NCBI GenBank assembly: GCA_947062475.1
Contig: CAMSQA010000003.1
Coordinates: 31,990 to 95,989, forward strand
DNA from: an uncultured Clostridia bacterium
GTDB taxonomy: Bacteria > Bacillota > Clostridia > Christensenellales > UBA1242
Length of the DNA: 64,000 bases
Direction: 5' to 3'
The notes below the pieces were generated by a model. That model saw only the letters and a list, made by a program, of their open reading frames with translations, did no database searches and had not been told where the DNA came from. Of the stretch, positions 811 to 64,000 are shown piece after piece (within the stretch, counting starts at the first letter, position 1; each line of letters starts with the position of its first letter). Made by a program: the position numbers and the translations under genes.

Positions 811-819
811 AAAAATATT

Positions 820-5842: not shown

Positions 5843-6749
5843 GTTTTACCTCCTTTTGTTGTTTGTTGAGAAAATTTAAAAAGTGCCTTTCCAGATTATA
5901 TTTGATTTCAGAAATAAATTTGATGTTTTTGTTTGATATATATTTAAATAAATTTGAGATATCATCTCTTTCGATTTTGATTGTGACCTGATTATATTGT
6001 GGCTGTTTGCGTATGATTTCAAATTCGCTTTTGCAAAAGTCAAGATAGTCTTGCTCTGAATTAAATTCAATTTTGTATTCTCGCACCGATCTGTTTCTTA
6101 ATTTATCCATGTCTGTGATTTCAATAATATGACCTTTATCGATAAGAGCAACATAGTCACAAACTTTTTCAAGCTCTTCATAGAGGTGAGAGCTTATAAA
6201 AATGGTCTTTCCTTTTTGTTTTTCTTTTTCGATTAATTCTAGAAAAGCCACTCGCATAAGTGGGTCAAGTCCTGTTGTTGGCTCATCTAAAATCAAAATC
6301 TCAGCATCATAAGATAGGGCAGTGACTATTGCAGTTTTTTGTTTCATACCTTTGCTCATTCGTTTAAGATTGGCTGTGGGGTCAAGATGAAGTGTTTTTA
6401 AGAGTTCATTTAGATTATCAAACTCTTTATTCCCACGAAGCTCTGCCTGAGATTTTAAAAATGCTGTTCCACTTTTTAAATCTGGAAATCCAATTTCGCC
6501 AGGCACATAACCAACAAAAGCTTTGATTTTGTCAGATTGCGTCCAAGAGTCAAAGCCTTTGACATGCACCTTGCCTTTATCAGGTTTAATAAATCCAAGA
6601 ATTGCTCGAATAGTTGTTGTCTTTCCTGCTCCATTTGCACCAACAAAGCCAAGTGTAACCCCTTTTTTTATAGAAAAGTTTAAATCAAAAACGCCGCGAC
6701 CATTGCCATAATCTTTGGTGAGATTTTCAACGGTTATGACCTCTTCCAT
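5835..6749 (-). CDS. ABC transporter ATP-binding protein
   Basis: Walker A GANGAGKTT, signature MSKGMKQK, Walker B ILILDEPTTGLD. Confidence 0.9.
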   Translation of the reverse strand: MEEVITVENLTKDYGNGRGVFDLNFSIKKGVTLGFVGANGAGKTTTIRAILGFIKPDKGKVHVKGFDSWTQSDKIKAFVGYVPGEIGFPDLKSGTAFLKSQAELRGNKEFDNLNELLKTLHLDPTANLKRMSKGMKQKTAIVTALSYDAEILILDEPTTGLDPLMRVAFLELIEKEKQKGKTIFISSHLYEELEKVCDYVALIDKGHIIEITDMDKLRNRSVREYKIEFNSEQDYLDFCKSEFEIIRKQPQYNQVTIKIERDDISNLFKYISNKNIKFISEIKYNLERHFLNFLNKQQKEVKHV

Positions 6750-6761
6750 AACTTTTTCCTC

Positions 6762-7655
6762 CTATCTATAAAATTTCATAAAGTATTCTTCAAGACTCTC
6801 TTTATTATGACGAAAATCAGATATCTTTCTTTTTGAGAGTGCATTTACAAGCAGGTTTATGTTCTTGTCATTGATAGAGACAACAATTTCTGACTTTGTT
6901 TCTGACAAAATCTGCAACTTTTCAAGCTTGCTGATTGACAAACTGAACTTCTCTCTTTCTTGTTCGCTAACAAAAATTATAGAATAGACCTTTTCATTGT
7001 TGTGCGTTAGGCTTGAAGTGGCAAATTGACTGACAATTTTGCCCTCTTTGATGATTGCAATACGATCGCATGTTGCTTCGACTTCACTGAAAATATGACT
7101 TGAAAGAAGAATTGTTTTGCCCCTCTTTTTTTCTTGTTTGACAAATTCAATAAACTTTTGCTGCATTTCAAAATCAAGTCCGCTGGTCGGCTCATCTAAA
7201 ATCAATATATCTCCATCATTTAAAAATGCTGCCACGATTGCAAGTTTTCTTTTATCACCAAGACTCATTTTTTTTGTTTCGCCTTCAGGATTTAATTCAA
7301 AATATTCAAGAAGAAAGTTTAGACGCTTATCATCTTTTACGCCCTTAAGTTTTTTCATCATATCAATAAATTGCCAACCTGACAATCCGCTCGGCAATGC
7401 AATTTCACCAGGAAGGTATCCAACATTTGCCATAAACTTGTCAAAATGAGAAAAACTTTCAAGACCAAGAATTTTAGTTTCTCCACTGTCAGGATGGCTG
7501 AAGCCTAAAAGATGGCGGATTGTGGTTGATTTTCCTGCTCCATTTGGCCCTAAAAATCCAAAGACTTCGCCTTCGTCAATCTTAAAAGAAACATCAAAAA
7601 CGCCGCGACCATGTCCATAATCTTTTGTGAGGTTGTTTACTTCAATTTTTGCCAT
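6762..7655 (-). CDS. ABC transporter ATP-binding protein (second ATPase of the operon)
   Basis: Walker A GPNGAGKST, signature MSLGDKRK, Walker B ILILDEPTSGLD. GGAGG RBS. Confidence 0.9.
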   Translation of the reverse strand: MAKIEVNNLTKDYGHGRGVFDVSFKIDEGEVFGFLGPNGAGKSTTIRHLLGFSHPDSGETKILGLESFSHFDKFMANVGYLPGEIALPSGLSGWQFIDMMKKLKGVKDDKRLNFLLEYFELNPEGETKKMSLGDKRKLAIVAAFLNDGDILILDEPTSGLDFEMQQKFIEFVKQEKKRGKTILLSSHIFSEVEATCDRIAIIKEGKIVSQFATSSLTHNNEKVYSIIFVSEQEREKFSLSISKLEKLQILSETKSEIVVSINDKNINLLVNALSKRKISDFRHNKESLEEYFMKFYR

Positions 7656-7884
7656 GAATCTCCTCCTAAGTAATAATAATTTTTAGACATATGTATATTT
7701 TTTTGACATCAGTATAATTATATGGTAAAATATTATAAAACTCAACTTTTATAATGGACGACAAAAGATTATTTGTAAAATAGTTGACAAAAAGTAAAAT
7801 TATGTCGAAAAAAAAGTTATTTAATTTGAATTTTTTAGGTTATAAAAAATAATTGAAGTGAGATAAAACAAGGGAGAAAATTTT

Positions 7885-8457
7885 ATGGAAAAAGAGGGAG
7901 ATTTGAGAATAAGAAGGACGAAGAAACTTTTGCTTGACTCGCTTATGCAACTTTTGCAAGAACATGCTTTTGAAAAAATTGGTGTCAACGATATATGTGA
8001 AAGAGCAATGGTGCATAGGGCAACATTTTATAATCATTTTGACGACAAATATGATTTGTTTAATTATGCTCTTTCCCAACTTGAAGATGAAATGTATTTA
8101 AGCACAATTGAAAAAGGAAGTTATACCTCCTCTGTGGAAATGTATTGCAGTATTTTGAGAAGTGTTTTTGATTTTATTGAGCAAAACAAATTAAAATTCA
8201 AACTTATAATAGATAATAATTCATCAAAATTGATATTTTTAATTTCGACAACAGTAAAAAGAAGTATAACTTATTTGATCAAACAAAATGAACTTAATCA
8301 AGAGTTTGTTGTGCCTCTTAATATCATAATTGACTTTTTTATGGGAGGAGTCACCTTTCTCTGCCTTGACTGGATTCAGTCAGATCTCTATTCTAAAGAA
8401 GAAATCATAAAATTTTTAGAGGTGTTTATTCAAAATGAAGAATTCTTAAAAAAATAG
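7885..8457 (+). CDS. TetR/AcrR family transcriptional regulator
   Basis: N-terminal HTH, RRTKKLLLDSLMQLLQEHAFEKIGVNDICERAMVHRATFYNHFDDKYDL. Divergent from the ABC operon. Confidence 0.85.
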   Translation: MEKEGDLRIRRTKKLLLDSLMQLLQEHAFEKIGVNDICERAMVHRATFYNHFDDKYDLFNYALSQLEDEMYLSTIEKGSYTSSVEMYCSILRSVFDFIEQNKLKFKLIIDNNSSKLIFLISTTVKRSITYLIKQNELNQEFVVPLNIIIDFFMGGVTFLCLDWIQSDLYSKEEIIKFLEVFIQNEEFLKK

Positions 8458-8468
8458 GCAACAACTGC

Positions 8469-8876
8469 CTATTTTTTATTATTAAAATCTTCATAATTAC
8501 ATTTCTTGATTGGGTGTGAAAGCAATTCCTCATCAAAATAGACCCTTTCAAGAAAATTAAAAGAAGAGACGCATCTTGAAGGATTGACGCCATGAAAGGA
8601 ACGAAAAGCTCGAGAGAAACCTTCACGTGTGTTGTAACCACATGCGATGGCTACATCAATAATACGATCATTTTTTATCATAAAAACTGCCTCACTTAGC
8701 CTTCTTTTTCTGATATAATCTTTTATGGTATAGCCAACAAAAAGTTCAAACACTGGGTTTGCAACCGAACTATTGAGTTCTAAAATTTGATATATCTTCT
8801 TATTGTCATGATCTTCAAACAAATTGTTTTCGATGTAGTCTATTGCAGAATTTAATCTTTTATAAATATTTATCAT
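8469..8876 (-). CDS. AraC family transcriptional regulator (small, MarA/SoxS-size)
   Basis: Double HTH: ELNSSVANPVFELFVGYTIKDYIRKRRLSEA...DVAIACGYNTREGFSRAFRSFHGVNPS. The start was trimmed to M24 (MINIYKRL). Confidence 0.8.
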   Translation of the reverse strand: MINIYKRLNSAIDYIENNLFEDHDNKKIYQILELNSSVANPVFELFVGYTIKDYIRKRRLSEAVFMIKNDRIIDVAIACGYNTREGFSRAFRSFHGVNPSRCVSSFNFLERVYFDEELLSHPIKKCNYEDFNNKK

Positions 8877-8989
8877 ATATTTTATTATAAGAAAAATAAA
8901 AACCTTGTCAAGAAAAAATGACATTTCTAAAATAAAAAAAGTCATTCAATTGCATTTTTGTTATGTTAAAATATATGCGAGGTAAAAAA

Positions 8990-9493
8990 ATGGAACAAAA
9001 ATTTCAATTTCATGGAAAAAGTTATGATTTCTCAGAGATGTGTATTGTTGTTGGCAAGGCTTTAGAAGAGAAGGTGAAAAGTTTCAAAGAGATGAAAGAA
9101 GTTCTTGTCAAATTGAAACAAGATTTAAGATTTTGCTCTATAAGCAAAGGATCTGATTCGCACGTTAAAGCGGTATTGAAAAAATATAATAGACTAATGG
9201 CACTTACTGATGAGCATGCAGTTGAGTCTATAAAAAAAATGAAAAAATGTTTATATACCGAAAATTATCCACTCATATTAGAGGGGATTGAAAAAGATTT
9301 AGACCGTCATAATGATATGCTTCTTACTCTTAACAGACATTTGCATAAATATATAATAGAAGTTGTTGACAAACGTATTGTTGAAGTGGCTTTAGAGCAT
9401 GACTTAATGATTATTGATATATCACTTAAAACTCTTGATATGCAAAAAGAATTTATCAGTGGCGAAGCTAAAGAATGTGAACATATAATGTAA
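8990..9493 (+). CDS. Hypothetical helical protein, paralog A
   Basis: GAGGT RBS + ATG 8990 (MEQKFQFHGKSYDF...). Paralogous to the 9589 gene, including its upstream region. Confidence 0.65.
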   Translation: MEQKFQFHGKSYDFSEMCIVVGKALEEKVKSFKEMKEVLVKLKQDLRFCSISKGSDSHVKAVLKKYNRLMALTDEHAVESIKKMKKCLYTENYPLILEGIEKDLDRHNDMLLTLNRHLHKYIIEVVDKRIVEVALEHDLMIIDISLKTLDMQKEFISGEAKECEHIM

Positions 9494-9588
9494 AAGTTTA
9501 GTAAAAAGATAAAAAGTGATATTTTTGAGACAAATAAAGTCACTCAAGGCTCTGCAAATTATGCTAAAATATTTGTGAGGTGAAAGCT

Positions 9589-10095
9589 ATGGCACAAAAA
9601 TTTAAATTCATCGGTGAAGAATATTCCAAAGAGGAACTTGCAAAAGTTCTCAAAGAGTCTTTGCTGTCAATGAAAAAAGATATTGATAAAAGACATAGTG
9701 TATATCTTGAAGCGAAAGAACTTTTAAAGGGTGGAGCAATTGTTGAAAACTCTTATGAGATAAATATGCTTTTGAATTTGAATAAAGAGCTGGCAGATTT
9801 TATAGCCAGCACTCACAAAAGAACTATTGAAAGATTGAAAGATGATATAAAAAATCATGATATCGCACATTTTGCAAAGATGGTAGAGAGAGATGTTGAA
9901 AAGCATCAAGAAACTCTTAGTATGCTTGATTTAAATATAGCAGATATATTAAATGAAGAAATCAATCAACAAATCCTTATGGCAACAATAAATAATGATA
10001 TGAATATTATGGAATTTGTTTTAGACAAACTTCAACTTCAAAATGAATTTGTTGATGAGCTTTCTTCTTCAAGAGAAGACGGAATGTCATTATAA
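9589..10095 (+). CDS. Hypothetical helical protein, paralog B
   Basis: GAGGTG RBS + ATG 9589 (MAQKFKFIGEEYSKEEL...). Same N-terminal pattern and similar length to 8990-9493. Confidence 0.65.
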   Translation: MAQKFKFIGEEYSKEELAKVLKESLLSMKKDIDKRHSVYLEAKELLKGGAIVENSYEINMLLNLNKELADFIASTHKRTIERLKDDIKNHDIAHFAKMVERDVEKHQETLSMLDLNIADILNEEINQQILMATINNDMNIMEFVLDKLQLQNEFVDELSSSREDGMSL

Positions 10096-12582: not shown

Positions 12583-12601
12583 GTCTTATATATTGTATAA
12601 T
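12573..12601 (+). promoter_or_regulatory. Sigma-A promoter driving the large ncRNA
   Basis: TTGCAT (12573-12578), 17-nt spacer ending in TG, TATAAT (12596-12601). The predicted TSS at about 12608-12610 coincides with the 5' strand of the closing helix. Confidence 0.7.
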
Positions 12602-12609
12602 CTATTTAT

Positions 12610-13206
12610 AGAAGGTGCAGTATTCTAGTCAGAAAGTTGACTTAGGAAGGTGAAGTAATAGCACCGAAGGGCATATCTGTGAAGTTTCTGGTGCTGGCTT
12701 TGGTTGCCCAAACTGGGGCTGGTGCTGGAAGTTAAGAAATTTGGGCGAGCTGTAATGGCATACAGAAGCCGACCCATTTTTCGTGGAGACCTAGTTTAGG
12801 TGGATGTCAAATCATCTACTTTCTAGGAAGAACCTGCATTGCGATAAAAGTTGTGTGCAGTGTAGCCTGCTTTGAGTGAGTGGTAAGGGATATGGCGTAA
12901 ATGATATAGTTTGTAAAGCGCTTATCAAAGGATATCATTGTCATTGAAATTTCACTTGCAAAACAAGCTAATAAGTCTTCTGCCTGTCAAGGAAAACTTC
13001 TAGACTGTTGCTTATGCAGATACATTGAGGATTATAGTGCGACCTAAGTGGCGATTCGGTGTTATGTCTTGCTTAAAAGGAAACTGCTTAATCGGTGACG
13101 ATGAGTGCGAGAATGGGAAATCCGACCGAACCTATGGCGCAAGGTTTACTCAGTAGATTGCCTTCTAAAAAGGGGAAAGGATAATAAGTCGCTTCCTCTT
13201 TTTTTA
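12610..13206 (+). ncRNA. Large (~560-nt core, ~600 nt with terminator) highly structured ncRNA; OLE/ROOL size class, family unresolved
   Basis: It has its own promoter and terminator (stem 13171-13199 + T7), no credible ORF, and visibly higher G+C than the flanks. Closing helix 12610-12617:13159-13166. Nested hairpin CCTAG/CTAGG (12790-94:12823-27) with GTGGATG/CATCTAC (12800-06:12813-19). Perfect 8-bp AATGATAT/ATATCATT (12900-07:12932-39). CTGTA/TACAG (12750-54:12761-65). GNRA hairpin ATCG-GTGA-CGAT (13091-13102). Long-range TTCGGT/ACCGAA (13055-60:13125-30). Confidence 0.75.
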
Positions 13207-41984: not shown

Positions 41985-42352
41985 ATTATATACTATATAT
42001 TGTATATTTTGTGATATTAATTTTTTTAGGAACAAAAAAGGCACAACTATACTAAATAGGCCATTAGATAATTTTTATTTTTTATTTCAAAATAATTTAA
42101 ATTTTTTTATTCCATTTATGCACTTATTTTACTCAAAATATGCTTAAAAAGCCGTTATATTAAAATAAAAATTAAAAGATTAGCACTAATTCTTACTTTT
42201 TCGCTTATATATTTATACAATACTACGTTAAAAATTATTTTTATACTGTCAAACTATTGACAAAATTTATTATTTAATTTATATTATTTACATGATAACT
42301 TTATCTTATTGGATTTTGTTATACATAAAAAAGTCAATGTAGGGAGGTAATA

Positions 42353-52848: not shown

Positions 52849-52923
52849 GCGTCCATAGTGAAATGGATATCACATAAGTCTTCGGAACTTAGATTTCGGG
52901 TTCGAGCCCTGATGGACGCACCA
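52849..52923 (+). tRNA. tRNA-Arg (anticodon TCG), CCA encoded
   Basis: Manual cloverleaf: acceptor GCGTCCA/TGGACGC, D arm GTGA/TCAC, anticodon stem TAAGT/ACTTA with loop CTTCGGA, T arm TCGGG-TTCGAGC-CCTGA (one G-U), ACCA. Confidence 0.9.
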
Positions 52924-53186
52924 AACATATTGTATAAAAAGTCTTTTTTAAGAAAGGCAAAACCATACTGCATGCAGTGGTGTTTGATTGATTTTGACAC
53001 TGGATACAGTGGTGGAAGAAAAGATAAGACAAAAATTTTGAAAGGAATAAGAAAGTGGCGTCTTTTCTGAATTGTGGGGATTTGATTTTTTGATAAAATA
53101 ATCAAAATTTTATAGAAATCAAAAATCAACCTTTGATTTGACGACAGTGATTGTTTGATTTCTTGAAAATCAAAAAAAATAAAAAC
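52898..53186 (+). repeat. Cassette-boundary module copy 1 (right half only, fused to the genuine tRNA-Arg 3' end)
   Basis: Shares with copies 2 and 3 the core ATAT(T/G)GTATAAAAAGTCTTTTTT (52926-52949), hairpins (52975-79:52998-53002; 53017-24:53061-68), TTTGATTTGACGAC (53132-45) and ATCAAA iterons. Confidence 0.85.
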
Positions 53187-53199
53187 GGGAGTGGAGAAT

Positions 53200-53841
53200 A
53201 TGAGTAAAATTATTTTAACATCAGATGGAATTGATAGTAAAGAATTATATGAATATTTTAATATCATAGTGGACAAGAATCTTAGAATAGGAATAATCAC
53301 TACGGCAAAAGATGAAAAAGAGAAAGCAAATGGACCTCAAAGACATAAAAAATTATTTCTAAATATGTCGGCTCAAACCGTTGATTTTATAGATTTGGAA
53401 GTTGAAAATCCAAAGATTATGCTAAATTATGATTTATTATTTATAGAAGGTGGCAATCCAGTTAGACTAATGTATTGGATTAGAGAAAGCAAAAGTGAAC
53501 CAATTTTTAGACAGTTTTTAGATAATGGCGGAGTTTTAGTAGGTAGAAGCGCAGGTTCTATGGTGTTAGGAAAAAATTTCTCAATTTGCAACTATTTAAC
53601 TCCAGAAATGAATAATGTTGGCATTACAGATTTTTCTGGGCTTGGTTTATGTGATTTAAATATATGCCCACATTATAATGCGTTTCCAAACATGTATGAA
53701 AACTGTGAGCAAAAATTAAGAAAATGCGAAAATGAACAAAACATAAAAATTACCAAGTTATTTGATGGACAAGCGTTTGTAGTATTGGATAAAATTGTTG
53801 AAAAGATAGCGGGAAATGTTGATCCTGAATTAACAAAGTAA
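53200..53841 (+). CDS. Peptidase S51 (dipeptidase E-like) family protein; cassette 1 cargo
   Basis: GGGAG RBS + ATG 53200. IILTSDGI, FIEGGNPVRL, nucleophile elbow GRSAGSMV. Confidence 0.7.
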   Translation: MSKIILTSDGIDSKELYEYFNIIVDKNLRIGIITTAKDEKEKANGPQRHKKLFLNMSAQTVDFIDLEVENPKIMLNYDLLFIEGGNPVRLMYWIRESKSEPIFRQFLDNGGVLVGRSAGSMVLGKNFSICNYLTPEMNNVGITDFSGLGLCDLNICPHYNAFPNMYENCEQKLRKCENEQNIKITKLFDGQAFVVLDKIVEKIAGNVDPELTK

Positions 53842-53845
53842 TTTT

Positions 53846-54276
53846 TTGATTTTCGCAAAATCAAAAGCGCGATCGCAAAATCAAAGTTTGATTTTTATTT
53901 TGATTATTTTGATTATTTTTGATTTTTTAGACCAAAAATTGCCGTCGCGAAATCAAAACTGAAAGATCAAAAATTCGACTTTGTTGTTAGTTGACACAAA
54001 TATATGGTATAAAAAGTCTTTTTTTGAAAAAACTTTGGCACACTGTTTGCAGTGGTTTGATAACGGTTTTGCCACTGGATACGGGGTTGAGAGGAAAAAC
54101 AGGCATAAAATTTTGAAAAAGTTGAAAAGTTAATGTCTTTTCTGGCAATGTAGAATTTTGAATTTTTAATATAATAATCAAAATTTTAAAGAAATCAAAA
54201 ATCAAAGTTTGATTTCGCGACAGAAACTTTGATTTCGAAGAAAAATCAAAATAAATCAAAAAATCAAATTACAAAA
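53846..54276 (+). repeat. Cassette-boundary module copy 2 (complete, ~430 bp)
   Basis: Left arm with palindromes TGATTTTCGCAAAATCA and AAAATCAAAGTTTGATTTT. GTCGCGAAATCAAA (53944-57). Degenerate tRNA 3'-end copy + core (53974-54025). Hairpins (54050-55:54072-77; 54092-101:54134-43). TTTGATTTCGCGAC (54208-21). About 17 ATCAAA/TTTGAT iterons. Confidence 0.85.
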
Positions 54277-54287
54277 GGAGTGCAACT

Positions 54288-54959
54288 ATGAGAAAATGGT
54301 TTAAAGGTTTGAGCGATAAAAAGAAAAAGATAATATCAATTTCATTGACAATCATTGGAATTATTTTTTGTTGTGTGGGAATTGAAAATTATTATTTAAT
54401 TATACCAGGACTTGTTTTTATTGTTCCTGGAATTATTTTTGTTGATTGGTACAATAAAGATAAAAAAGAACAAGAAGATAAAAATATACATAGCGAAATG
54501 GAGAACAATAAGCAAAAAACAGAAGTTCAACAATTTGATGATGAAATAGAAAAAGTTGAAACAACACTCCGCAATGAGAAACCTAATTCAGTACTGAACG
54601 AAGAAAACTTTTTGTATACCCCTCCCGAAGGTTTTGAATTAGTAGATTGGACATATGCAACTACATTAGTTAGAGGATGTAGTAACTATATTGATGAAGA
54701 TTATGAAATTGACATAGATAGCGAGGTAGAAATAATACATGAACCAACAGATAAGTATCCAGAAAATACGTCTATCTATATTGACAATGATAAGGTTGGC
54801 TCTTTGAAACAAGATATGGCAATAGAATGGTATCAGAGGTTTGGAAGTAACTATAATTTTATAGGGCGAGTTGTAGAATATGAGCAAGGAGAATATCCAA
54901 GACTACTGATAGAAATAAAAAAGCCAATTATTAGAAAAATAAAGAAAAAACAAAATTAA
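54288..54959 (+). CDS. Membrane-anchored protein with a HIRAN-like C-terminal domain; cassette 2 cargo
   Basis: AAAGGAG RBS. Two N-terminal TM. C-terminal EVEIIHEPTDKYPENTSIYIDNDKVGSLKQDMAIEWYQRF resembles the HIRAN pattern (EP.N.yD.nAI.V....iGyl). Confidence 0.45.
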   Translation: MRKWFKGLSDKKKKIISISLTIIGIIFCCVGIENYYLIIPGLVFIVPGIIFVDWYNKDKKEQEDKNIHSEMENNKQKTEVQQFDDEIEKVETTLRNEKPNSVLNEENFLYTPPEGFELVDWTYATTLVRGCSNYIDEDYEIDIDSEVEIIHEPTDKYPENTSIYIDNDKVGSLKQDMAIEWYQRFGSNYNFIGRVVEYEQGEYPRLLIEIKKPIIRKIKKKQN

Positions 54960-54982
54960 TATTTACTAAAAGGAGAATTACA

Positions 54983-55180
54983 ATGAAAAATTTGAACGAT
55001 ATTTACAGATCACTTATGCATTTAGTTAAAATTCCTATGAAGCATTCAGAAGAGTTGAAAGAAATAGGATTAGACATTGATGAAGTAATTGAGAAAATTA
55101 GTAAATTGCAACCAGATCTTCAATTTGAAAGTGCTATTTTATTTGCCAAATCAATGCAAAAATATGGACTAATTAAATAA
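54983..55180 (+). CDS. Small hypothetical protein (65 aa)
   Basis: AAGGAG RBS. Helical. Confidence 0.45.
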   Translation: MKNLNDIYRSLMHLVKIPMKHSEELKEIGLDIDEVIEKISKLQPDLQFESAILFAKSMQKYGLIK

Positions 55181-55241
55181 AATTGAGATTCTATTTAGAC
55201 GAAAATGAAATTATCTGTTAATTTGAAGAAGGAGAAAAACT

Positions 55242-56027
55242 ATGGAAGATTTTGAGAACTGTCCTTTATGTGGACATAAAACTGCAAGTATTCTGGGAAC
55301 ACAAGAAGGATTTAATTGGAGCGATGTTAGATGTAAGAATTGCTTTGATTATGTTATTCATCAAAGTGTTTTATTTCAAATTAGTGATGGTGATAAAAAA
55401 GAAATTAATAAACGAAAAAGACTTAATTGTGTTTACAAATTTCTAATGGAAAAGCCATTATTTAATAATAGCTATCTATATCAATTTTTTTATGAAGAAC
55501 AAACTAAAAATATGGAAACATCAGATCCAAGACGTGTAAATGTTGCATCTTTGATGGAAAATCTTCCTTCTAAAACAATTGATAGAATCAATTTTACATT
55601 AAAGAATTTAATTGTTAAATATGATATAGGAAATACGGTTGATGTTAGTGAGATAGATTTTGGATTAGTTCTTATTGACAACGAAAGAGAACTACAGGAA
55701 TTCTTGACTTATTATCAAGGCAAAGATTTGATAAGAATTTTGGAAATGAAGGATGACAAAATTAAAAAATTTTCATTAAATATAAAATCAAAAATTTACT
55801 TGGAGGATGGAGAAAAGTTGAACGAGGAAAAACAAACATTGATTACAAATATAACGAATAATGATAATAGCATAAGTATTGGCGATGTAAAGAATCTTAA
55901 AAAATCTAATATAGGGCAAAATAAAGTTGTTACCGAGAAAGAAACAAAAGTTAATACAGCGTTAGAACTTAATGTTGGCAAAGAGAATAAAAAGGTAGCT
56001 CGAAGAAGTTTTTTTAAGAAAAAGTAA
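55242..56027 (+). CDS. Hypothetical protein with an N-terminal zinc-ribbon
   Basis: AAGGAG RBS. CPLCGH...CKNC four-Cys motif at the N-terminus. Confidence 0.5.
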   Translation: MEDFENCPLCGHKTASILGTQEGFNWSDVRCKNCFDYVIHQSVLFQISDGDKKEINKRKRLNCVYKFLMEKPLFNNSYLYQFFYEEQTKNMETSDPRRVNVASLMENLPSKTIDRINFTLKNLIVKYDIGNTVDVSEIDFGLVLIDNERELQEFLTYYQGKDLIRILEMKDDKIKKFSLNIKSKIYLEDGEKLNEEKQTLITNITNNDNSISIGDVKNLKKSNIGQNKVVTEKETKVNTALELNVGKENKKVARRSFFKKK

Positions 56028-56033
56028 TTGTGA

Positions 56034-56482
56034 ATTTTGATTTTCGCAAAATCAAAACTTCGTCGCGAAATCAAAGTTTGATTTTATTTTTGATTTTTTT
56101 GATTATTTTTGATTTTATGTTAAAATAAACTCGTCGCAAAATCAAAACTGAAAAATCAAAAAACCGACTTCGTTGTTAGTTGACACAAATATATTGTATA
56201 AAAAGTCTTTTTTGAGAAAGGCTTTTTTCATTGCCAAAACCACAATATGCAGGGGTTTAGCATCAAAATTTACACTGCATACAGACCGACATTGAAAAGG
56301 AAGAAAAATTTTTAAATTTTAAGTCTTATTTCCTCTCATCACTGGGCTCGACAAGTTTTGATTTTTACATAAAATTTTGATTTTTTTACCGAAAATCAAA
56401 AATCAAATTTTTGATTTCGCGACAGCCAGCTTTTGATTTCCTTAAAAAATCAAAAATAATCAAAATAAATCAAAAAATCAAA
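56034..56482 (+). repeat. Cassette-boundary module copy 3 (complete, ~450 bp)
   Basis: About 85% identical by eye to the copy 2 left arm. GTCGCGAAATCAAA (56062-75) and GTCGCAAAATCAAA (56133-46). Degenerate tRNA 3' end + core (56164-56214). Hairpin (56298-307:56325-34). TTTGATTTCGCGAC (56410-23). Iterons. Confidence 0.85.
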
Positions 56483-56527
56483 GTCTAATATTTTTTCAAT
56501 TATTTAGGATGCTTTAACTTAAATTTA

Positions 56528-56536
56528 TGCTATAAT
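56528..56536 (+). promoter_or_regulatory. Extended -10 promoter element for the 56568 operon
   Basis: TGcTATAAT (56528-56536), about 30 nt upstream of the AGGAGAG RBS. Confidence 0.5.
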
Positions 56537-56567
56537 GAATTAATAATTATTCAGGAGAGTGCACTAT

Positions 56568-59500
56568 ATGAAACTAATCACAAGCGTACAAATTCAGGAG
56601 TTTTTTAAGGGAACTAGTAGGCGGGGACAGGAGATTTTACCTGAGTTAGTAAGAAAACTTATCCGACTAAGTATAAATAGGAATGGTTCAGTCCATTTCC
56701 CATGTGGCGATGCAATTTACACAAAGGGATGGGACGGAACTGTTCAAGATAATACTATAACAAATGAATATGTGCCAATTTCTAATTCTTTTTGGGAGAT
56801 GGGAACTAATGCTCGTACATTAAACAAAATTAAGGCTGATTATGATAAAAGAAAAATACTTGCTACAAATTATAATAAGAGAGAATATACCTATGTAGCT
56901 GTAACTCCTAAAATATTGGATAGTTGTAAGAAGTTGGAACTTGAAGAGAAGTGTAATAAAGAAAAAATTTTTAAAATTGTTAAGATTATCGACGCAAATG
57001 ATTTAGAATGTTGGATAGAGTACCATATAGATATTGCGTTGTGGTTATTATCTGAATTTAATAAAAAATTTGAAGATATAGGTTTATCATTATTAGTTGA
57101 TGAATGGAACAAAATTTTAGAGTTTGCAGAACCACAGTTAACTTATGATGTAATTGTGAGTGGGAATGAAGCGAAGGCACATAAGTTTTGTCAAGACATT
57201 TCTTGTTTGCAAGGAGATAATATCTATTCAATTTCTTCGCCTTATGGCAAGGAGCCAGCATTTCTCTTTGCTATGGCAAGTTTAATCCAAAATGTGGATA
57301 TATCCATACAAGAAAAGGTTGTTATTGCAAAAAAACAAAATGATTTAGATATTATAAATGTGTGCTGTACTGGAAAAATAATTTTAATTATGTTTAATTG
57401 TTCTGATGATAAAATTAAAATTGGGAACAATAATATTTATGTAGTATTCAATTCGTTGTATAGTGACGATTTAAAATTAGATTATATTAGTTTTGTAGAT
57501 TTTGCAAACGCATTAAAATCTATGAAAATACCGTCTGGCATCACATATAATGTAGCGAAAATGGTAGAATGTAATATAAGTGTATTAAAAAGGTTATATG
57601 CACGAAATCCTTTAGCGAGAATCCCAAAATGGGTTAGGACTAAAGACAGATTGGAACTTATTCCATTAATGTTAATGTCAGAAATAGATCTTGAAGATGC
57701 AAGCAGCATTGAAATACTAAAAACAATAGTCGGATCTAATTATGACGAATATATTGAGAAATTAGACTTTTGGGCGGAGATGGATGATGCTCCCGTATTG
57801 CGTTTTGAGAATTGCTATACGATAAATTCTAGAAAAGAATGTTTTGACTTAATGCAAATTAATATTTATTCAATTAAGGTGGGAAAATTAGAAAAAATTA
57901 TCAAAGCTATATTGTTAAATGAAGATAATGATTCGTCTATAGATGGAATGGTAAACGAGTTTGATCATAATGGAATGATTTGGCATGGCAAAGTTATCAA
58001 CAATATCTTAGATACTTTTATCATTCTTTCGATGAAAAATGCAAAATTCCAAAGACATTATGATTATTTTGTACAAGAAATTTTTAATAGATGCAGTAGT
58101 GATATTAACATGTTAGAGAGATCTTCAAAGTATTTCAGTAAATTAGCAGAATTATCACCGTATGCTATTATCAATTATGTTAAGGGTATGTTATACGATA
58201 ACAATACTTTATTTAGAACATTGCTTGAGGATAAGAGTAAGGGATTTTATAATCATATTAAATGGGCATTGGAGATTTGCCTAAAATTTGAAGACCATGC
58301 TATAGATGCTCTTAGAACGGTGTTAGATTTATATTTTTCTGACATGAAACTTCCCAATTTTGAAAGTTTAAAAGAATTTGTTATACAATGTTTTTCGCCA
58401 ATTTCCACAGGGATAATTCCGATTGCACAAAAATTGAAATTAAATCTCCTGTTTAATAGCATAAATGACTATTATATAGATAAAGCTAAACTTATTGTTA
58501 AAAAGCTAGTAGATGGAGGGGAGAATATTATATCTTATGGTGTATACTATTCGTATAAGTTGCCATATAGAACGCAATCAGATTTATTAATGCAAGACTT
58601 CTATGATACTCAAAAATTGGCTACAAGTTGGTTGATTTCAAATTCAGAGATCCATGAAAAAGCTGAACTTCTAAAAAATATTTTGTCAACAATTCATACA
58701 AATAGTTTAGAGTCTATCACTGAAAAGCTTGCAGAGTTTAAGGAGTTTTTACCTAAGGATATAGATGATAAGATAAAAAGTGAAATAAATTTAGTTGCAT
58801 TGAAAAATATCCATGATATTAAACAGTTTCGTTCTAATTGGACTCATGAGCAAGCATTTTTGCCTTTGTTAGAAGACTTGTATAGCTTTACATTACCAAA
58901 AGATGTTTATATGAAGTATCAATATATATTTAAATTAGAAGGATTCCCGATACTAGACCCTCCAGATTTTGATAGCGATAGAGATAATTGGTATGAAATG
59001 GATAGTGTAAAAAGATGGGATGAGACTCAAAATGCTATTCAAACACTTATTTCGGAATATGGGGATGGTATCATTACTAGAATAATTGAAGATGCTAGTG
59101 GTAAACGAACATATAGATTTTGGTCAATATTATATGATTTTTCAGCCAATCATGATAGGGATTTTAAGAAATTTTTAGAGCTTAAGAATACTGAAGGGGC
59201 CACTGTATATTTACAAAGATATGATGAAAAAAAAGTAATAGATCAAGTTAAAAATTGTGACCAAAGACATAAAGAGTTTTTATATTCTGTATTACCAATT
59301 AATGAATCGCTTATCAAATATTTTAATGGGAAAGAAGATGAAATATTATATTGGAAGAATAAAAGATTTCTATTGCAAGATGTCCCTTGCCGCGAACAAG
59401 TTTTTGAGAAATCGCTTATTTTTAATCCGATTGTTTTGTTAGATTCATATGCCTATAGGAATAAGGATTTTTCTTACGAAGATGGAATAAAGATTTTAAA

Positions 59501-60284
59501 GGCGGTGGTAGAAAAGAGCAAAATCGAAAAGCTTTTCACAGGATCAAATGCCCATGAAGAATATGCTTTACAGGAAATAATTACAAATATGGATAAAAGA
59601 TTCTATACGGATGAATTAGCATTGCTTGAGTTTCAACTTTTGCCATTTTTGCTTAATGGATATATTCAAGATTACCCGATGGGAGTAAAAAATTATTTTT
59701 GGAAAAATCCACAGGAGTTAGGTAAGTTGTTGTGTAAATTGTATAAGGAAAGAGGAAACTTTGATATAAATAGTGTTGGGGCAAAAATTTACTATCAAGG
59801 AATTGTAAACTTAAATAAAAGCTGTTTAATTCCAAGGGAGTATATAGTACAAAAGAAAGATGATTTACAAGAGTGGGTGCAAAGAGTAATTGAGGTTGTG
59901 GATGAAAGTGAAGTTGAAATCAAAAAATATATTGTTCAATCGATAGTTTCCATTATGGCATTATGTCCAGAGGATTCTGTGAATAAAATATGGCCAACAA
60001 GAGAAGTTGCAAAAATACTAGAAGATATAGACAAATTAAAACTATTTGAGAGGGATGCTGTTTCGTCATCATTTTATTTTGCGAAAATTAATTCTCAAGG
60101 TATGAGATGCGTTGGCAATGGAGATTATGAACACAATGAATCTCTAAAATATAAACAGTTTGCAAATGAATATCGTGCAATATATCCTGTTGTATCAAAG
60201 GCTCTTGACTTTTTATCGGATTCCTTTGCCAGAACGGGAGATGAGGATAAAAGGAACGCTGTGCGAGGTAGTTATTATGTTTAA
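56568..60284 (+). CDS. Large (1238 aa) hypothetical protein: conserved-looking N-terminal domain + long alpha-helical repeat region; no P-loop seen
   Basis: AGGAGAG RBS, 8 nt, ATG 56568. The N-terminus, ..GQEILPELVRKLIRLS...FPCGDAIYTKGWDGTV...SFWEMGTN...KADYDKRK, could be a nuclease-like (D...E) domain. I found no GxxxxGK[ST] motif. Confidence 0.6.
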   Translation: MKLITSVQIQEFFKGTSRRGQEILPELVRKLIRLSINRNGSVHFPCGDAIYTKGWDGTVQDNTITNEYVPISNSFWEMGTNARTLNKIKADYDKRKILATNYNKREYTYVAVTPKILDSCKKLELEEKCNKEKIFKIVKIIDANDLECWIEYHIDIALWLLSEFNKKFEDIGLSLLVDEWNKILEFAEPQLTYDVIVSGNEAKAHKFCQDISCLQGDNIYSISSPYGKEPAFLFAMASLIQNVDISIQEKVVIAKKQNDLDIINVCCTGKIILIMFNCSDDKIKIGNNNIYVVFNSLYSDDLKLDYISFVDFANALKSMKIPSGITYNVAKMVECNISVLKRLYARNPLARIPKWVRTKDRLELIPLMLMSEIDLEDASSIEILKTIVGSNYDEYIEKLDFWAEMDDAPVLRFENCYTINSRKECFDLMQINIYSIKVGKLEKIIKAILLNEDNDSSIDGMVNEFDHNGMIWHGKVINNILDTFIILSMKNAKFQRHYDYFVQEIFNRCSSDINMLERSSKYFSKLAELSPYAIINYVKGMLYDNNTLFRTLLEDKSKGFYNHIKWALEICLKFEDHAIDALRTVLDLYFSDMKLPNFESLKEFVIQCFSPISTGIIPIAQKLKLNLLFNSINDYYIDKAKLIVKKLVDGGENIISYGVYYSYKLPYRTQSDLLMQDFYDTQKLATSWLISNSEIHEKAELLKNILSTIHTNSLESITEKLAEFKEFLPKDIDDKIKSEINLVALKNIHDIKQFRSNWTHEQAFLPLLEDLYSFTLPKDVYMKYQYIFKLEGFPILDPPDFDSDRDNWYEMDSVKRWDETQNAIQTLISEYGDGIITRIIEDASGKRTYRFWSILYDFSANHDRDFKKFLELKNTEGATVYLQRYDEKKVIDQVKNCDQRHKEFLYSVLPINESLIKYFNGKEDEILYWKNKRFLLQDVPCREQVFEKSLIFNPIVLLDSYAYRNKDFSYEDGIKILKAVVEKSKIEKLFTGSNAHEEYALQEIITNMDKRFYTDELALLEFQLLPFLLNGYIQDYPMGVKNYFWKNPQELGKLLCKLYKERGNFDINSVGAKIYYQGIVNLNKSCLIPREYIVQKKDDLQEWVQRVIEVVDESEVEIKKYIVQSIVSIMALCPEDSVNKIWPTREVAKILEDIDKLKLFERDAVSSSFYFAKINSQGMRCVGNGDYEHNESLKYKQFANEYRAIYPVVSKALDFLSDSFARTGDEDKRNAVRGSYYV

Positions 60285-60786
60285 TAGTGAAGAGGGTAAA
60301 AGAGAAATGGCATACATTATTACTCGGTATGCTTACAGAGATACAGCACTTGAATATTATCATTCAAAATCAATAATGATGGATATGTTGTTTTATAAAA
60401 AGATTTATAATATAGTCTTTGCTAAATTAAAAAAAGTAGGCTTATTACACAAATATATTGAAAACTATCAAGTAGATGAACTTAAAAATAAAGAAGATTA
60501 TGAAAATTTACTGGCTACAGTGCCAGAAGAACTCAAATTTAAGTTTATGAGATATTTTATTGAAGTTACTGAGCTTTTGCGAGAGTATTTTGAATTTAGT
60601 TGGGACCCTGCGGAAATTGTTGATTGTAATTTGTACGGAAAAAGTCCTGCTTATTATGTTTTATCAGGGCATTTCACTGAGTGTTGTAAAGATGGCGCAA
60701 TTTTAGATGATAAAACAATGTGCTACATTAATAAAGATATACATAACAGAATTTACACCTTGTTGATAAATGGATATTTCAGTTAA
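60277..60786 (+). CDS. Hypothetical 169-aa protein, translationally coupled to the 1238-aa gene
   Basis: ATG 60277 overlaps the upstream stop by 8 nt (ATGTTTAA). MFNSEEGKREMAYIITRYAYRDTALEYYHS... The track start at 60160 lies inside the upstream gene. Confidence 0.6.
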   Translation: MFNSEEGKREMAYIITRYAYRDTALEYYHSKSIMMDMLFYKKIYNIVFAKLKKVGLLHKYIENYQVDELKNKEDYENLLATVPEELKFKFMRYFIEVTELLREYFEFSWDPAEIVDCNLYGKSPAYYVLSGHFTECCKDGAILDDKTMCYINKDIHNRIYTLLINGYFS

Positions 60787-60787
60787 A

Positions 60788-61024
60788 CTATTTGAATAGT
60801 TCTTTGCAGACCTTATATGTAATTTCAATAATATGGTCAATTTCAAGAGAATGAAGTTGACCTTTTTCATTGTCTAAGTTTATATATTCACGCCATTTTT
60901 CTTTTGAAAAACCTTTTGTGAATTTATCTTCTAGCTCACAAATTTTGTTTAATTGAAGTTGTGTTTCGGCACTTAGTTTTTCCGATTCAATTATGTTCAT
61001 AACAATTTCTATAATATGTTTCAT
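60788..61024 (-). CDS. Small hypothetical protein (78 aa), divergent from the Fic gene
   Basis: GGAGG RBS on the minus strand. Helical. Its stop is 1 nt from the convergent 60277-60786 gene. Confidence 0.5.
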   Translation of the reverse strand: MKHIIEIVMNIIESEKLSAETQLQLNKICELEDKFTKGFSKEKWREYINLDNEKGQLHSLEIDHIIEITYKVCKELFK

Positions 61025-61137
61025 AAAACCTCCGTAAATTTTGTTGTGTGTTGTATAGCGTAAATAAAATTCTTTTGCAAGTCTTTTTGTGAAGTTTTTG
61101 AAAATATCTTATCGGCAATAATTATTGTGAAAGTTGG

Positions 61138-61166
61138 TTGACTTTTTGCCGATATCGGTATATAAT
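61138..61166 (+). promoter_or_regulatory. Fic gene promoter
   Basis: TTGACT (61138-43), 17 nt, TATAAT (61161-66). This excludes the track's TTG start at 61138. Confidence 0.65.
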
Positions 61167-61194
61167 AAAGTTAATAAATTTAGGAGAAAAATCA

Positions 61195-62085
61195 GTGAAA
61201 TTTTTATCAGTTGCAGAGATTGCTAAAAAATGGGGAATGAGTGATAGGTCTGTTAGGAACTATTGTGCGCAAGGACGCATTAAAGGAGTCTTCCTAACTG
61301 GAAAAACTTGGAACATTCCAGCAGATGCAGTTAAACCAGAAAGAGAGAATAAAGCAAAATTTAGTGATAATGAACTTTTGAATGTATTGAAAGAACAAAA
61401 AGATATGAAGCTTCAAGGTGGAATCTACCACAAAACTCAAATTGAATTGACTTACAATTCGAACCATATCGAAGGCAGTAAACTTACAGAAGACCAAACA
61501 AGATTTATCTTTGAAACCAATACAATTGGTGTAGTAAATGAAACGATCAATATTGATGATGTTATTGAAACTTCAAACCACTTTAAATGTATTGACTATA
61601 TTATAGATAATGCAAAGAAATCTTTGACCGGATTAATGATAAAAGAATTGCACTTCATCTTAAAAACTGGCACTTCGGATAGTCGCAAAGATTGGTTTAA
61701 TGTTGGAGCATACAAAAAACTCCCCAACGAAGTTGGTGGTGAAGAAACCTGTAAACCAGAAGATGTTGCAACTGAAATGAAAAAACTGCTTGAAACTTAC
61801 AACGCAAAGAAAATGAAAACCCTAGAAGATATAATAGAGTTTCACCAGCACTTTGAAAAAATCCATCCTTTCCAAGATGGTAACGGCAGAGTCGGACGCC
61901 TTATTGTATTCAAAGAGTGCTTGGCAAACAACATCGTTCCATTTATAATAGATGACAACTTAAAATTTTACTACTATCGCGGATTAAAAGAATGGAACAA
62001 TGAACGAGGTTATCTATGCGATACCTGCCTGTCAGCACAGGATAAATATAAGCAGTGGTTGGAGTATTTTGAGATTAAGTTTTAA
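61195..62085 (+). CDS. Fic/DOC family protein (class II, internal inhibitory helix) with an N-terminal HTH
   Basis: AGGAG RBS + GTG 61195. HTH LSVAEIAKKWGMSDRSVRNYCAQGRI. Inhibitory motif SNHIEG (S/TxxxE[G/N]). Fic motif HPFQDGNGRVGR. Confidence 0.88.
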   Translation: MKFLSVAEIAKKWGMSDRSVRNYCAQGRIKGVFLTGKTWNIPADAVKPERENKAKFSDNELLNVLKEQKDMKLQGGIYHKTQIELTYNSNHIEGSKLTEDQTRFIFETNTIGVVNETINIDDVIETSNHFKCIDYIIDNAKKSLTGLMIKELHFILKTGTSDSRKDWFNVGAYKKLPNEVGGEETCKPEDVATEMKKLLETYNAKKMKTLEDIIEFHQHFEKIHPFQDGNGRVGRLIVFKECLANNIVPFIIDDNLKFYYYRGLKEWNNERGYLCDTCLSAQDKYKQWLEYFEIKF

Positions 62086-62125
62086 AAGAAATTACAGCCT
62101 AACTAAGTAAAAGAGCAGAGGTAAT

Positions 62126-64000
62126 ATGCAAAATATATTAAAAAAATACTGTCTAGAAGACAACGAAAATGGAATTATATTAATTGATATGCCCACTGGA
62201 AGTGGTAAGACGCACAATGTTATAGAGTTTATATATAAAAACTATGAAAACTTTGCCAAAAAAGTATTTTTTATTACTCCATTGAAAAAGAATCTAGGAT
62301 ATGATGACTTGAGAAAGAGATTTATTGAAAATGGGAAAGAAGAAATCTTTAATAAGAATGTATTATATATAAAAAGTAATATGGATATGTTGATAGAAAA
62401 CTTTAACGAAGCATATCAAGAAATACCTGATAAAATTAAAAGTGATAAAACAACAAAACATGTTAAAACACTTATAAAAATAATAGATTCCAATGTAAAT
62501 TCAGATTTTAAGACTGAAGCAATAGAAAATTTAAGAGAAGAATGGGAACCTAAATTTAGATCTGTTTTAGAAAATTATGTTATTTTTAACGATAACGGAG
62601 AAAAAAGAAACTACGCAGAACGTTTAAGATTTGTTGAGGAAAACAATCCATGGATTATAAAACTATACCCTTCAGTAATCACAGATAAAGCTAAAATCAT
62701 ATTTATGACCGTGGATAAGTTTTTGTCAATGAACTCAACTATAATTAAACCTTCTTATACTATTCTTAGTGATGATATAGTAAAGGATTCAATTATTTTC
62801 ATAGATGAGTTTGATTCAGCGAAAGAAAATATCCTAAGCAATATAATAAAAAGTTCGCTTAATAACAAAATTGGATTGTTAGATCTTTTTCATTTAATAT
62901 ATGCCGGTTTGACCGTTTGTGATTTTACCAAAAAATTAATGACTCCATCTCAGTATAATATTGAAAAGAAGAAAAATTCTACTAATTATTATAATCCTAT
63001 TGAGATTATTGATAAATTTAAGAAAAGGGCTGATGAAATTAAGGATAAGTATAACTTGCAATTTTTACATAAGTTAATTGGTAATCCCAAAGATAATGCG
63101 TATTTTATGTTTCAGGACTACAGATTTATTAGTATACTGCCATCACAAAATAATTATCTATTGTTAAAAACTAACAAAACTGACAAAATCAATCAAATAG
63201 AACCTATGCCGAATAGAGAAGAAAATAAAGATGAGCTGAAAGATCTTTTATTTGACATTAAGAACTTTATAAATTATTTTCAAATAGGGGTTGGATTTAT
63301 AGCCAATAATTATAAACAGCTCAAGATTGACTTAAAAGAAGATATGAATTTAATTTCGGACGATGCATGTGTAAGAACGGTACTTGCGGAATTTGGTATA
63401 GAAGGGAAATATTTAAGTTATTTAACGAAAGCCATCGTTAGAAGAAAGAAAAGCAAAGAAATGAGTAGTAATTCATTATCTGATGATTTAGATTTCTCTT
63501 TTAATGAAAAAGGTTTTAGATTTTATAGTATTATCGATAGTGACACTCACGACACACAATCAAAAATTCAATATGTAACAGTTGACGACACTCCGGAAAA
63601 AATATTATTGGGCTTATGTAATAAAGCAAAAGTGGTCGGTATTTCAGCTTCTTCATCACTAAGGACATCAACGGGTAATTTTGACATAAAATATTTAGAA
63701 ATTAAATTAGGTAGAAAATTTAAACATTTGAGCAAAGAAGAAAGAAAACAGCTAGAAGAATATTTTGATAGGCAAACCTGTGATTATGGCAAAGTAAATA
63801 TATTCACAAAAGAAATAAACGTTAATGAACTTAATTTGGAAGATAACATAACTAAATTTAGTGAAAATATTCAAGTTATAATAAATAAAAAATTTCAGAC
63901 ATTAAGAGGTTATATAAGAATAAGGTATATTAAATTATTTTTATGTATGCTGGAATTCTTAAAAGATAATAATTTGTATTCCTATTTGTTCTTAACTAGT
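62126..64000 (+). CDS. SF2 helicase/translocase-like protein; the 3' end runs off the window
   Basis: Open-ended, so absent from the track. ATG 62126 is followed by 625 sense codons to the window end. Motif I DMPTGSGKTH, motif Ia FFITPLKKNL, motif II IIFIDEFDS. Confidence 0.7.
   Translation, partial: MQNILKKYCLEDNENGIILIDMPTGSGKTHNVIEFIYKNYENFAKKVFFITPLKKNLGYDDLRKRFIENGKEEIFNKNVLYIKSNMDMLIENFNEAYQEIPDKIKSDKTTKHVKTLIKIIDSNVNSDFKTEAIENLREEWEPKFRSVLENYVIFNDNGEKRNYAERLRFVEENNPWIIKLYPSVITDKAKIIFMTVDKFLSMNSTIIKPSYTILSDDIVKDSIIFIDEFDSAKENILSNIIKSSLNNKIGLLDLFHLIYAGLTVCDFTKKLMTPSQYNIEKKKNSTNYYNPIEIIDKFKKRADEIKDKYNLQFLHKLIGNPKDNAYFMFQDYRFISILPSQNNYLLLKTNKTDKINQIEPMPNREENKDELKDLLFDIKNFINYFQIGVGFIANNYKQLKIDLKEDMNLISDDACVRTVLAEFGIEGKYLSYLTKAIVRRKKSKEMSSNSLSDDLDFSFNEKGFRFYSIIDSDTHDTQSKIQYVTVDDTPEKILLGLCNKAKVVGISASSSLRTSTGNFDIKYLEIKLGRKFKHLSKEERKQLEEYFDRQTCDYGKVNIFTKEINVNELNLEDNITKFSENIQVIINKKFQTLRGYIRIRYIKLFLCMLEFLKDNNLYSYLFLTS

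Follow-up and report, generated by a model that had tools for sequence, protein, structure and literature searches.

Candidate mobile gene cassettes in an integron-like array at the 3' end of a tRNA-Arg gene from an uncultured Clostridia bacterium

A 64 kb stretch of DNA from an uncultured Clostridia bacterium (contig CAMSQA010000003.1; hereafter the window, with all coordinates given as positions within it) carries on its plus strand an array of gene cassettes directly behind a tRNA-Arg(TCG) gene. Comparison with related genomes makes it probable that mobile gene cassettes built this integron-like array at the 3' end of the tRNA gene. Three copies of a non-coding module follow the tRNA (52924-53190, 53842-54287 and 56028-56558), and unrelated cargo genes on the same strand stand behind each of them: an S51 peptidase gene, then open reading frames (ORFs) of 223, 65 and 261 aa, then a 1241-aa ORF and the genes after it. 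The core ATAT[T/G]GTATAAAAAGTCTTTTTT is common to all three copies and matches the window three times, at 52927, 54002 and 56191 (0 expected from 100 shuffles). A profile hidden Markov model made from six modules matches the 64 kb only at 52921-53186, 53843-54286 and 56032-56475. Two positions, 53977 and 56166, match the end motif GACTTYGTTGTTAGTTGACA (0 expected), and TTTGATTTCGCGAC with at most 2 mismatches occurs 11 times against 0.44 expected, 9 of the 11 lying within modules. As seen in the MAFFT alignment, a left arm of about 150 nt is present in copies 2 and 3, and the tRNA fills that place in copy 1. Units of AAATCAAA/TTTGATTT and the motif TCGC[G/A]AAATCAAA crowd the module arms, with opposite orientation in the left and right arm. 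A first-pass annotation of the same DNA had described the three shared modules directly after the tRNA, their common core, the replacement of the first left arm by the tRNA and the unrelated same-strand cargo, all of which the core matches, the alignment, the profile and the gene content bear out.

Evidence for mobility comes from the position of the same cassettes in other genomes. A core-pattern scan of 185,579 species genomes returned five loci (L001-L005), whose hosts are metagenome-assembled uncultured Christensenellaceae, Christensenella or Eubacteriales. In all five species the array begins exactly at the CCA of a tRNA gene. The core is flush with the CCA of tRNA-Leu(CAA) in L001, tRNA-Leu(TAA) in L002 and tRNA-Gly(CCC) in L005; in L003 (tRNA-Leu(TAG)) and L004 (tRNA-Gly(CCC)) a variant core adjoins the tRNA and the scanned core belongs to the second cassette. 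The S51 peptidase cassette is found after tRNA-Arg(TCG) in the window, after tRNA-Leu(TAA) in L002, L043 and L044, and after tRNA-Gly(CCC) in L042, where a glutamine-amidotransferase cassette follows it (L042 and L044 were retrieved through protein look-ups). In blastn comparisons, homology between the window and L002 is confined to 52918-54012 at 95% identity, and that with L044 to 52918-53970. Homology of this cassette goes no further than its predicted boundaries, beyond which the genomes have unrelated flanks. Since the shared blocks are cassettes, each composed of a half module, cargo and another half module, the mobile unit would be the cassette and not the module. In all three genomic contexts (four loci) the S51 cassette, which has spread recently, is the tRNA-proximal unit, which fits insertion at the tRNA junction in the way that integrons insert at attI.

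Other cassettes behave similarly. In L005 the YdjC cassette follows tRNA-Gly, and in L003 it takes second place behind tRNA-Leu(TAG); the FMN-reductase cassettes of L045 and L055, two different species, share 98% identity. A peptidase homologue, P0001, shares 99% protein identity with the S51 peptidase of the window, and a 77%-identical S51 gene lies after tRNA-Leu(TAG) in L037 with cassette ends that are diverged yet recognisable. Across the arrays the cargo includes GNAT, glyoxalase, methyltransferase, GrpB, YdjC, hydrolases and defence-like genes, and it resembles that of chromosomal integrons. In L003, the YdjC cassette breaks at about 4209 (minus strand), 40-50 nt into the ORF, and passes into unrelated coding sequence, either by a deletion or as an assembly chimera.

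The tRNA-Arg site itself is empty in some relatives and differently filled in others, as seen in the orthologous loci that were fetched through homologues of the adjoining 147-aa gene. In L048-L053 (flanking protein 77% identical) a terminator comes directly after tRNA-Arg, representing the empty site. In L045-L047 (84%) another array, with at least 6 genes, stands behind the tRNA, namely GNAT, OmdA/DUF8412, FMN reductase, a 141-aa ORF, a hydrolase and an aldo-keto reductase, and the end of this array reads ...GACTTCGTTTTGTGTTGACACA^TAACATGG (the caret here and below marking the boundary) before a terminator. The loci L054-L058, presumably of one species by their identical flanking protein, differ in array content among strains: L055 has 3.2 kb of extra cassettes, and the first ORF is intact in L058 where L054 has a deletion. 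The comparison of cargo at module boundaries in relatives, proposed as a check in the first-pass annotation, thus found the site empty, differently filled or strain-variable; uniform cassette content among strains, named there as an argument against the idea, was not seen. Its model of circles of the form core, right arm, cargo and left arm integrating serially at the tRNA is upheld by the S51 cassette behind three tRNAs, the boundary-limited homology and the variable tRNA-Arg site, and has to be amended in that part of the array differences comes from homologous recombination.

Elements of other families also occupy this tRNA-Arg gene in more distant relatives, which shows the site to be a general hotspot. 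The orthologous gene in L065 (1-10000) is occupied by an integrative mobilizable element that encodes a MobL relaxase and an HTH_17 protein beside a tyrosine integrase of 423 aa; upstream stands a further, degenerate copy of tRNA-Arg, and a retron-like RVT_1 gene and an AAA_5 protein are found further on. A more distant species (L060; reverse complement of 1-10000, 89-2770) has different small recombinase-less units, in the order full tRNA-Arg, two cargo genes, second full tRNA-Arg, NUDIX gene, 44-nt partial tRNA-Arg and native terminator. GGCACCC repeats are present there, and two small Phage_integrase genes with an HTH_17 gene lie about 2.3-4.5 kb past the partial tRNA-Arg. In L002 (6100-5920, minus strand) the S51 cassette end TTGACACA is followed, after about 165 nt, by an exact 20-nt copy of the tRNA-Leu(TAA) 3' end, GACTCCCACCACCAGCACCA; the sequence TACATTATGT[A/G]TAAT stands 3' of both the cassette end and this copy, with a CAT gene beyond. 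The copy looks like the trace of a second, classical integration bounded by tRNA repeats.

The cassette boundaries are highly regular. All 16 of the 5' junctions have the form CA^A, 17 nt, GTCTTTT, and all 12 cassette 3' ends (9 loci) have the form AAAGAC, 17 nt, CA^, with spacers of varying sequence in both. The consensus of the 12 ends is AAAGACTTYG-N7-TTGACACA, and all boundaries read ...TTGACACA^A[A/C][T/C]ATA. A 26-nt core forms the 5' side, reading A-[A/C]-[T/C]-ATA.. and then AAAAGTCTTTTTT. The 3' side is a site of about 57 nt or more, beginning at the stop codon of the cargo; the alignment of the 12 ends gives an obligatory part of about 57 nt, TCGCAAAATCAAAAC..AAATCAAAAAAAAGACTTYG-N7-TTGACACA, and the longer left arm is optional. 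The degenerate tRNA 3' end that the first-pass annotation had read into copies 2 and 3 was not substantiated, since TTCGA is found only in copy 2 and the conserved ends are the consensus above, not a tRNA remnant. Where two cassettes meet, the terminal CA is the exact centre of an inverted repeat made up of AAAGAC and GTCTTT, and presumably the same repeat exists in the cassette circle. Such symmetry about a CA dinucleotide agrees with the action of a dimeric site-specific recombinase. At the point of exchange, the tRNA end (GC[A/T]CCA) and the cassette end (GACACA) have only CA in common.

The remaining parts of the module appear to be optional. The first cassettes of L003, L004 and L045 have neither leader nor right arm, and the YdjC cassette of L005, which is demonstrably mobile, has no right-arm repeats; leader and AAATCAAA repeats are therefore not needed for mobility. 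The essential site would then be the 26-nt core joined to the 57-nt 3' site, with a length of about 85 bp. This is much smaller than the ornate attachment region of about 440 bp initially proposed, in which the leader and the AAATCAAA blocks now appear as optional parts. Folded as single-stranded DNA, the junction gives a hairpin with z of -2.2 to -2.6 in 3/4 cases. In a comparison by eye, the junction was not a dif-like 11-6-11 site, and identity with dif/Xer sites was rejected.

The target appears to be a short sequence at the tRNA end. The occupied tRNAs in the related loci end in GC[A/T]CCA in 13/13 distinct genes and represent at least five tRNA species, while this end is lacking in 6/11 distinct unoccupied tRNA genes of the same loci (Val, Lys, Ile, Ser, Ala and a second tRNA-Arg, which ends in GGCCA). 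Modules were never met outside tRNA-anchored arrays in the window and related loci, and none of the cassette ends examined had a target-site duplication: terminal cassettes end in ...TTGACACA and pass into unrelated sequence or a terminator. Modules scattered at non-tRNA sites with target-site duplications, the sign of a MITE (miniature inverted-repeat transposable element) against which the first-pass annotation had warned, were thus not encountered, and the window has only three copies, all in the array; the features of a MITE or insertion-sequence derivative are absent. Direct repeats of the 3' part of a tRNA (attL/attR) are likewise absent at cassette ends, the true partial-tRNA repeats of L060 and L002 belonging to other elements. 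Four patterns searched in viral contigs (IMG/VR) gave nothing or chance matches in giant-virus and phage contigs. Two scans of JGI metagenomes gave 0 matches and 28 chance matches, all of the latter lacking the core as well as the end motif; in blastn the module matched neither plasmids (PLSDB) nor a phage collection.

These observations can be joined into a mechanism. A cassette would excise as a circle, its ends joining into the symmetric site of about 85 bp with inverted AAAGAC/GTCTTT motifs at a distance of 17 bp on both sides of a central CA. Strands would be exchanged at this CA by a dimeric site-specific recombinase whose gene lies elsewhere in the genome, the partner of the CA being the terminal CA of a tRNA gene ending in GC[A/T]CCA or that of a resident cassette. 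The tRNA would remain intact and no target duplication would arise; repeated integration beside the tRNA would produce head-to-tail arrays, in which homologous recombination between the repeated modules would then delete or swap blocks. The 2-nt identity of the partners and the dinucleotide-centred geometry favour a serine recombinase over a classical tyrosine integrase. The class of the enzyme is the least certain element of this proposal; a lambda-type tyrosine integrase, an HUH enzyme or a host enzyme may act instead.

Several observations weigh against the mobility of the cassettes as read here. No match to Phage_integrase, Resolvase, Recombinase or any other recombinase family in Pfam was found in the tested ORFs of the window (those of at least 100 aa, except four at 35.8-38.9 kb and ORFs inside longer ORFs), in agreement with the first-pass annotation, which had seen no recombinase nearby. 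None stands beside the arrays of L001-L005, L037, L042-L047 and L054-L058, and in about 300 kb of related loci no cognate integrase was found, either within an element or in a related autonomous element with the same att site. The breakpoints at which L054 and L055 diverge fall within a 25-nt repeat where the left arm begins, and not at CA, which indicates that homologous recombination between modules also reshapes the arrays and explains part of their variation. The sequence 3' of the empty tRNA sites is not conserved, which is unusual for the attB sites of serine integrases. The evidence is comparative, the related sequences are all metagenome-assembled genomes of one clade, and neither a circle nor an excision junction has been observed.

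Three other explanations were considered. It is rather unlikely that the cassettes are stripped-down integrative elements, like remnants of cis-mobilizable elements (CIMEs) or tycheposons, moved in trans by a lambda-type heterobivalent tyrosine integrase for which the AAATCAAA/TCGCGAAATCAAA repeats are arm-type sites of a 440-bp attP and the tRNA is a classical attB. Such an origin would agree with the tRNA target, with the inversion of repeated motifs between the two arms, with a module size in the range of complex attP sites, and with the use of the same tRNA-Arg by the integrase element of L065 and the tRNA-Arg-bounded units of L060. However, tyrosine integrases normally need 6-8 bp of identical overlap, whereas the tRNA and cassette ends share only CA; furthermore, the cassettes are not flanked by a tRNA-derived direct repeat, at least five different tRNA species are targeted, neither the right arm nor most of the left arm is required, and the site is symmetric about a dinucleotide. 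Very improbable are non-autonomous single-strand transposons, inserted 3' of GCWCCA by an HUH/Y1 (IS200/IS605-like) or an IS91- or Helitron-like enzyme. Insertion exactly 3' of a short conserved sequence regardless of what lies downstream, the fixed orientation, the lack of target-site duplication and the hairpin potential at both ends are all as such an enzyme would leave them, but no TnpA-like gene was found in any locus examined, the two end hairpins are dissimilar where the left and right ends of IS608 are alike, and the ends together form one dyad-symmetric site of the kind used by a dimeric recombinase on duplex DNA.

The lowest probability belongs to an explanation without site-specific mobility, in which the modules are promoter or untranslated-region units or a MITE, and the arrays change by duplication and homologous recombination. 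Promoter-like and leader-like parts do exist in the modules, and the L054/L055 breakpoints do fall inside a module repeat. Nevertheless, homologous recombination cannot set one cassette flush with the CCA of three unrelated tRNAs amid unrelated flanks, and the modules, which have no target-site duplications, were never met outside tRNA-anchored arrays. The blocks shared between genomes are two half-modules with their cargo, not whole modules, and these cassette-limited blocks largely refute it. Retro-transposition by template switching onto the tRNA CCA was also set aside: any plausible transcription start would be downstream of the cassette's 5' boundary, and the two ends make up a dyad in the DNA. 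The same applies to the 1241-aa protein as a candidate enzyme, as it has no Pfam, NCBIfam, PADLOC or PDB similarity and its neighbours are defence-like.

The array of probably mobile cassettes can be compared with several known systems. Like integrons, it consists of small, mostly single-gene cassettes in head-to-tail order and one orientation, with a recombination site at the 3' end of the ORF from the stop codon on and only a few nucleotides left on the 5' side after integration. Similar cargo and strain-variable content are known from integrons, including sedentary chromosomal integrons and clusters of attC sites without integrase (CALINs), and the size range of attC sites includes the joined site of about 85 bp. 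Integrons differ in having an adjacent intI, attI and Pc promoter, whereas no IntI was found beside the present array, which adjoins a tRNA; in place of attI, the anchor is the CCA end of several different tRNAs. The R''/L''-L'/R' boxes and G^TTRRRY crossover of attC were found at none of the cassette junctions, in a comparison that included no attC covariance model. The attC crossover lies at the base of a palindrome, while that of the cassettes is at the centre of an inverted repeat, and the cassette-junction hairpin would place it in the loop. Unlike integron cassettes, many of those described here come with a leader or promoter of their own. Complete integrons are all but restricted to Gram-negative lineages, and reportedly they are essentially not known from the Gram-positive Clostridia lineage to which the host belongs.

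The staphylococcal cassette chromosome (SCC), pseudo-SCC elements and the Enterococcus cassette chromosome likewise insert at the 3' end of a conserved gene and leave it intact. SCC also forms tandem composites including recombinase-less units with inverted repeats at unit ends, and a serine recombinase is plausible in both. SCC units, however, measure 20-60 kb, target rlmH and carry ccr, whereas the present ones measure 1-2 kb, use several tRNAs and have no ccr-like gene among the tested ORFs; the site sequences are unrelated. Tycheposons and CIMEs also integrate repeatedly at tRNA genes, pushing older units inward and producing islands of variable cargo (bioRxiv 10.1101/2020.12.28.424599). 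Tycheposons carry integrase and replication genes of their own, and tycheposons and CIMEs alike have partial tRNA repeats at their flanks and carry an integrase or descend from elements that do. The cassettes have neither these genes nor such repeats, and a dedicated symmetric site bounds them. The pdif modules of Acinetobacter plasmids and the integrative mobile elements exploiting Xer (IMEXs) are also small recombinase-less modules with short inverted sites and a presumed trans-acting enzyme, but they target dif through 11-6-11 XerC/XerD arms; the cassettes target a tRNA end and have no such arms.

In its working, the array is like an integron or a ccr-less SCC array, but it has the defining features of neither. 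Recombinase-less cassette arrays are known as a kind; the present one has a distinctive target and site, and there is a substantial chance that the enzyme and the system are new as well. No published description of such a tRNA-anchored cassette system was found in literature searches. It may tentatively be proposed, at a level of belief just short of even, that Gram-positive gut anaerobes have an undescribed gene-capture system with the CCA ends of several tRNA genes as landing pads, recombinase-less cassettes of 1-2 kb, a dedicated symmetric site of about 85 bp and a trans-acting enzyme that carries the cassettes from tRNA to tRNA and across species. This enzyme could be a serine recombinase of relaxed attB choice, a co-opted host enzyme or a new family. 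If this is true, integron-equivalent cassette arrays exist in gut Clostridia, implying that the strategy of a flexible gene pool evolved more than once, and such arrays would account for part of the strain-level variation near tRNA genes in uncultured gut bacteria. The clean definition of the site (CA, inverted AAAGAC/GTCTTT at 17 bp and a GCWCCA target) eases the search for the enzyme and for circles in existing read sets. Genome engineering could also profit from a recombinase able to insert DNA seamlessly behind the CCA of numerous tRNA genes.

The leader and right arm may serve expression or regulation as additions to the cassette, and the AAATCAAA repeats may offer additional sites to a protein that binds the minimal site as well. 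Two inverted repeats, CTGTATGCAGTG/CACTGGATACAG and AGAAAAGAC/GTCTTTTCT, are conserved in the leader. Searched against Rfam, the module gave no match at gathering score other than the tRNA and no credible one up to E=5, and RNAalifold gave 11 pairs in the leader, only 1 of which covaries. That the leader is a conserved RNA with a structural or guide function (a riboswitch, a ribozyme or bridge-RNA-like) is unsupported on these results and because mobile cassettes occur without it. Some right arms finish in a near-consensus promoter, TTGCAA-17-TGGTATAAT. The core was rejected as a plain sigma-70 promoter: its -10-like TATAAA varies (GCAACA, ACTAAAC, TTAACT), while AAAAGTCTTTTTT and the spacing are conserved. 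The leader of cassette 3 is of a second sequence type, common to L001 and L045, and an extended -10-like TGCTATAAT lies at 56528-56536 in the start of that cassette. The features of the array are collected in Table 1.

Table 1. Features of the tRNA-Arg array in the window
Feature	Coordinates	Strand	Description
tRNA-Arg(TCG)	52849..52923	+	Intact, ends GCACCA; ARAGORN; Rfam tRNA 58.8 bits
Cassette 1 (S51 peptidase), putative mobile unit	52924..53998	+	Begins flush after CCA
Cassette 1, 5' core AACATATTGTATAAAAAGTCTTTTTT	52924..52949	+	Junction to GTC is 17 nt
Cassette 1, optional leader	within 52950..53186	+	Inverted repeats CTGCATGCAGTG/CACTGGATACAG and AGAAAAGA/TCTTTTCT
Cassette 1, right-arm AAATCAAA/TTTGATTT repeat block, optional	53081-53186	+	After the leader
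Cassette 1, cargo: S51 peptidase, 213 aa	53200..53841	+	Pfam PF03575, 1.2e-21
Cassette 1, left arm	53842..53998	+	Starts at stop codon
Cassette 1, minimal 3' site	~53945-53998	+	End is GAC, 17 nt, CA
Cassette 2	53999..56187	+	Core 53999-54024; leader and right arm to 54276; left arm 56028-56187
Cassette 2, ORFs	54288-54959, 54983-55180, 55242-56027	+	223 aa, 65 aa, 261 aa
Cassette 3, start	56188..56558	+	Core 56188-56213; right-arm repeats 56351-56482
Cargo 3' of module 3	56568..64000	+	1241-aa protein, then 208-aa ORF, Fic protein, ResIII/DdmD-like helicase

The three ORFs of cassette 2 have no family matches in Pfam, NCBIfam or PADLOC, and the label 'HIRAN-like' given to the 223-aa product in the first-pass annotation is accordingly not supported. 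After module 3 no cassette end was found before the end of the window at 64000, past which the helicase ORF continues, and a 78-aa ORF lies on the minus strand among these downstream genes. The Fic protein (in the region 61195-64000) has an N-terminal excisionase-type helix-turn-helix and matches PADLOC PDC-S04 (1.8e-112); together with the helicase it looks like a defence island downstream of the array. The 208-aa ORF (60277-60787) has an 84%-identical DNA homologue in L045 (1114-1624), which lies beyond the end of the cassette array and has a 363-aa gene as its partner, not the 1241-aa gene. Elsewhere in the window, ACTATATATTGTATATTTTGTG at 41985-42010, about 45 nt 3' of tRNA-Val(TAC) and a terminator, resembles the core start ACTATATTGTATAAAAAG; it could be a relic or, the DNA being AT-rich, a chance occurrence. 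A full-length OLE (ornate large extremophilic) RNA was found at 12596-13180 on the plus strand (Rfam RF01071, 387.9 bits), a notable setting for this RNA given that the relatives are gut Christensenellales-like genomes.

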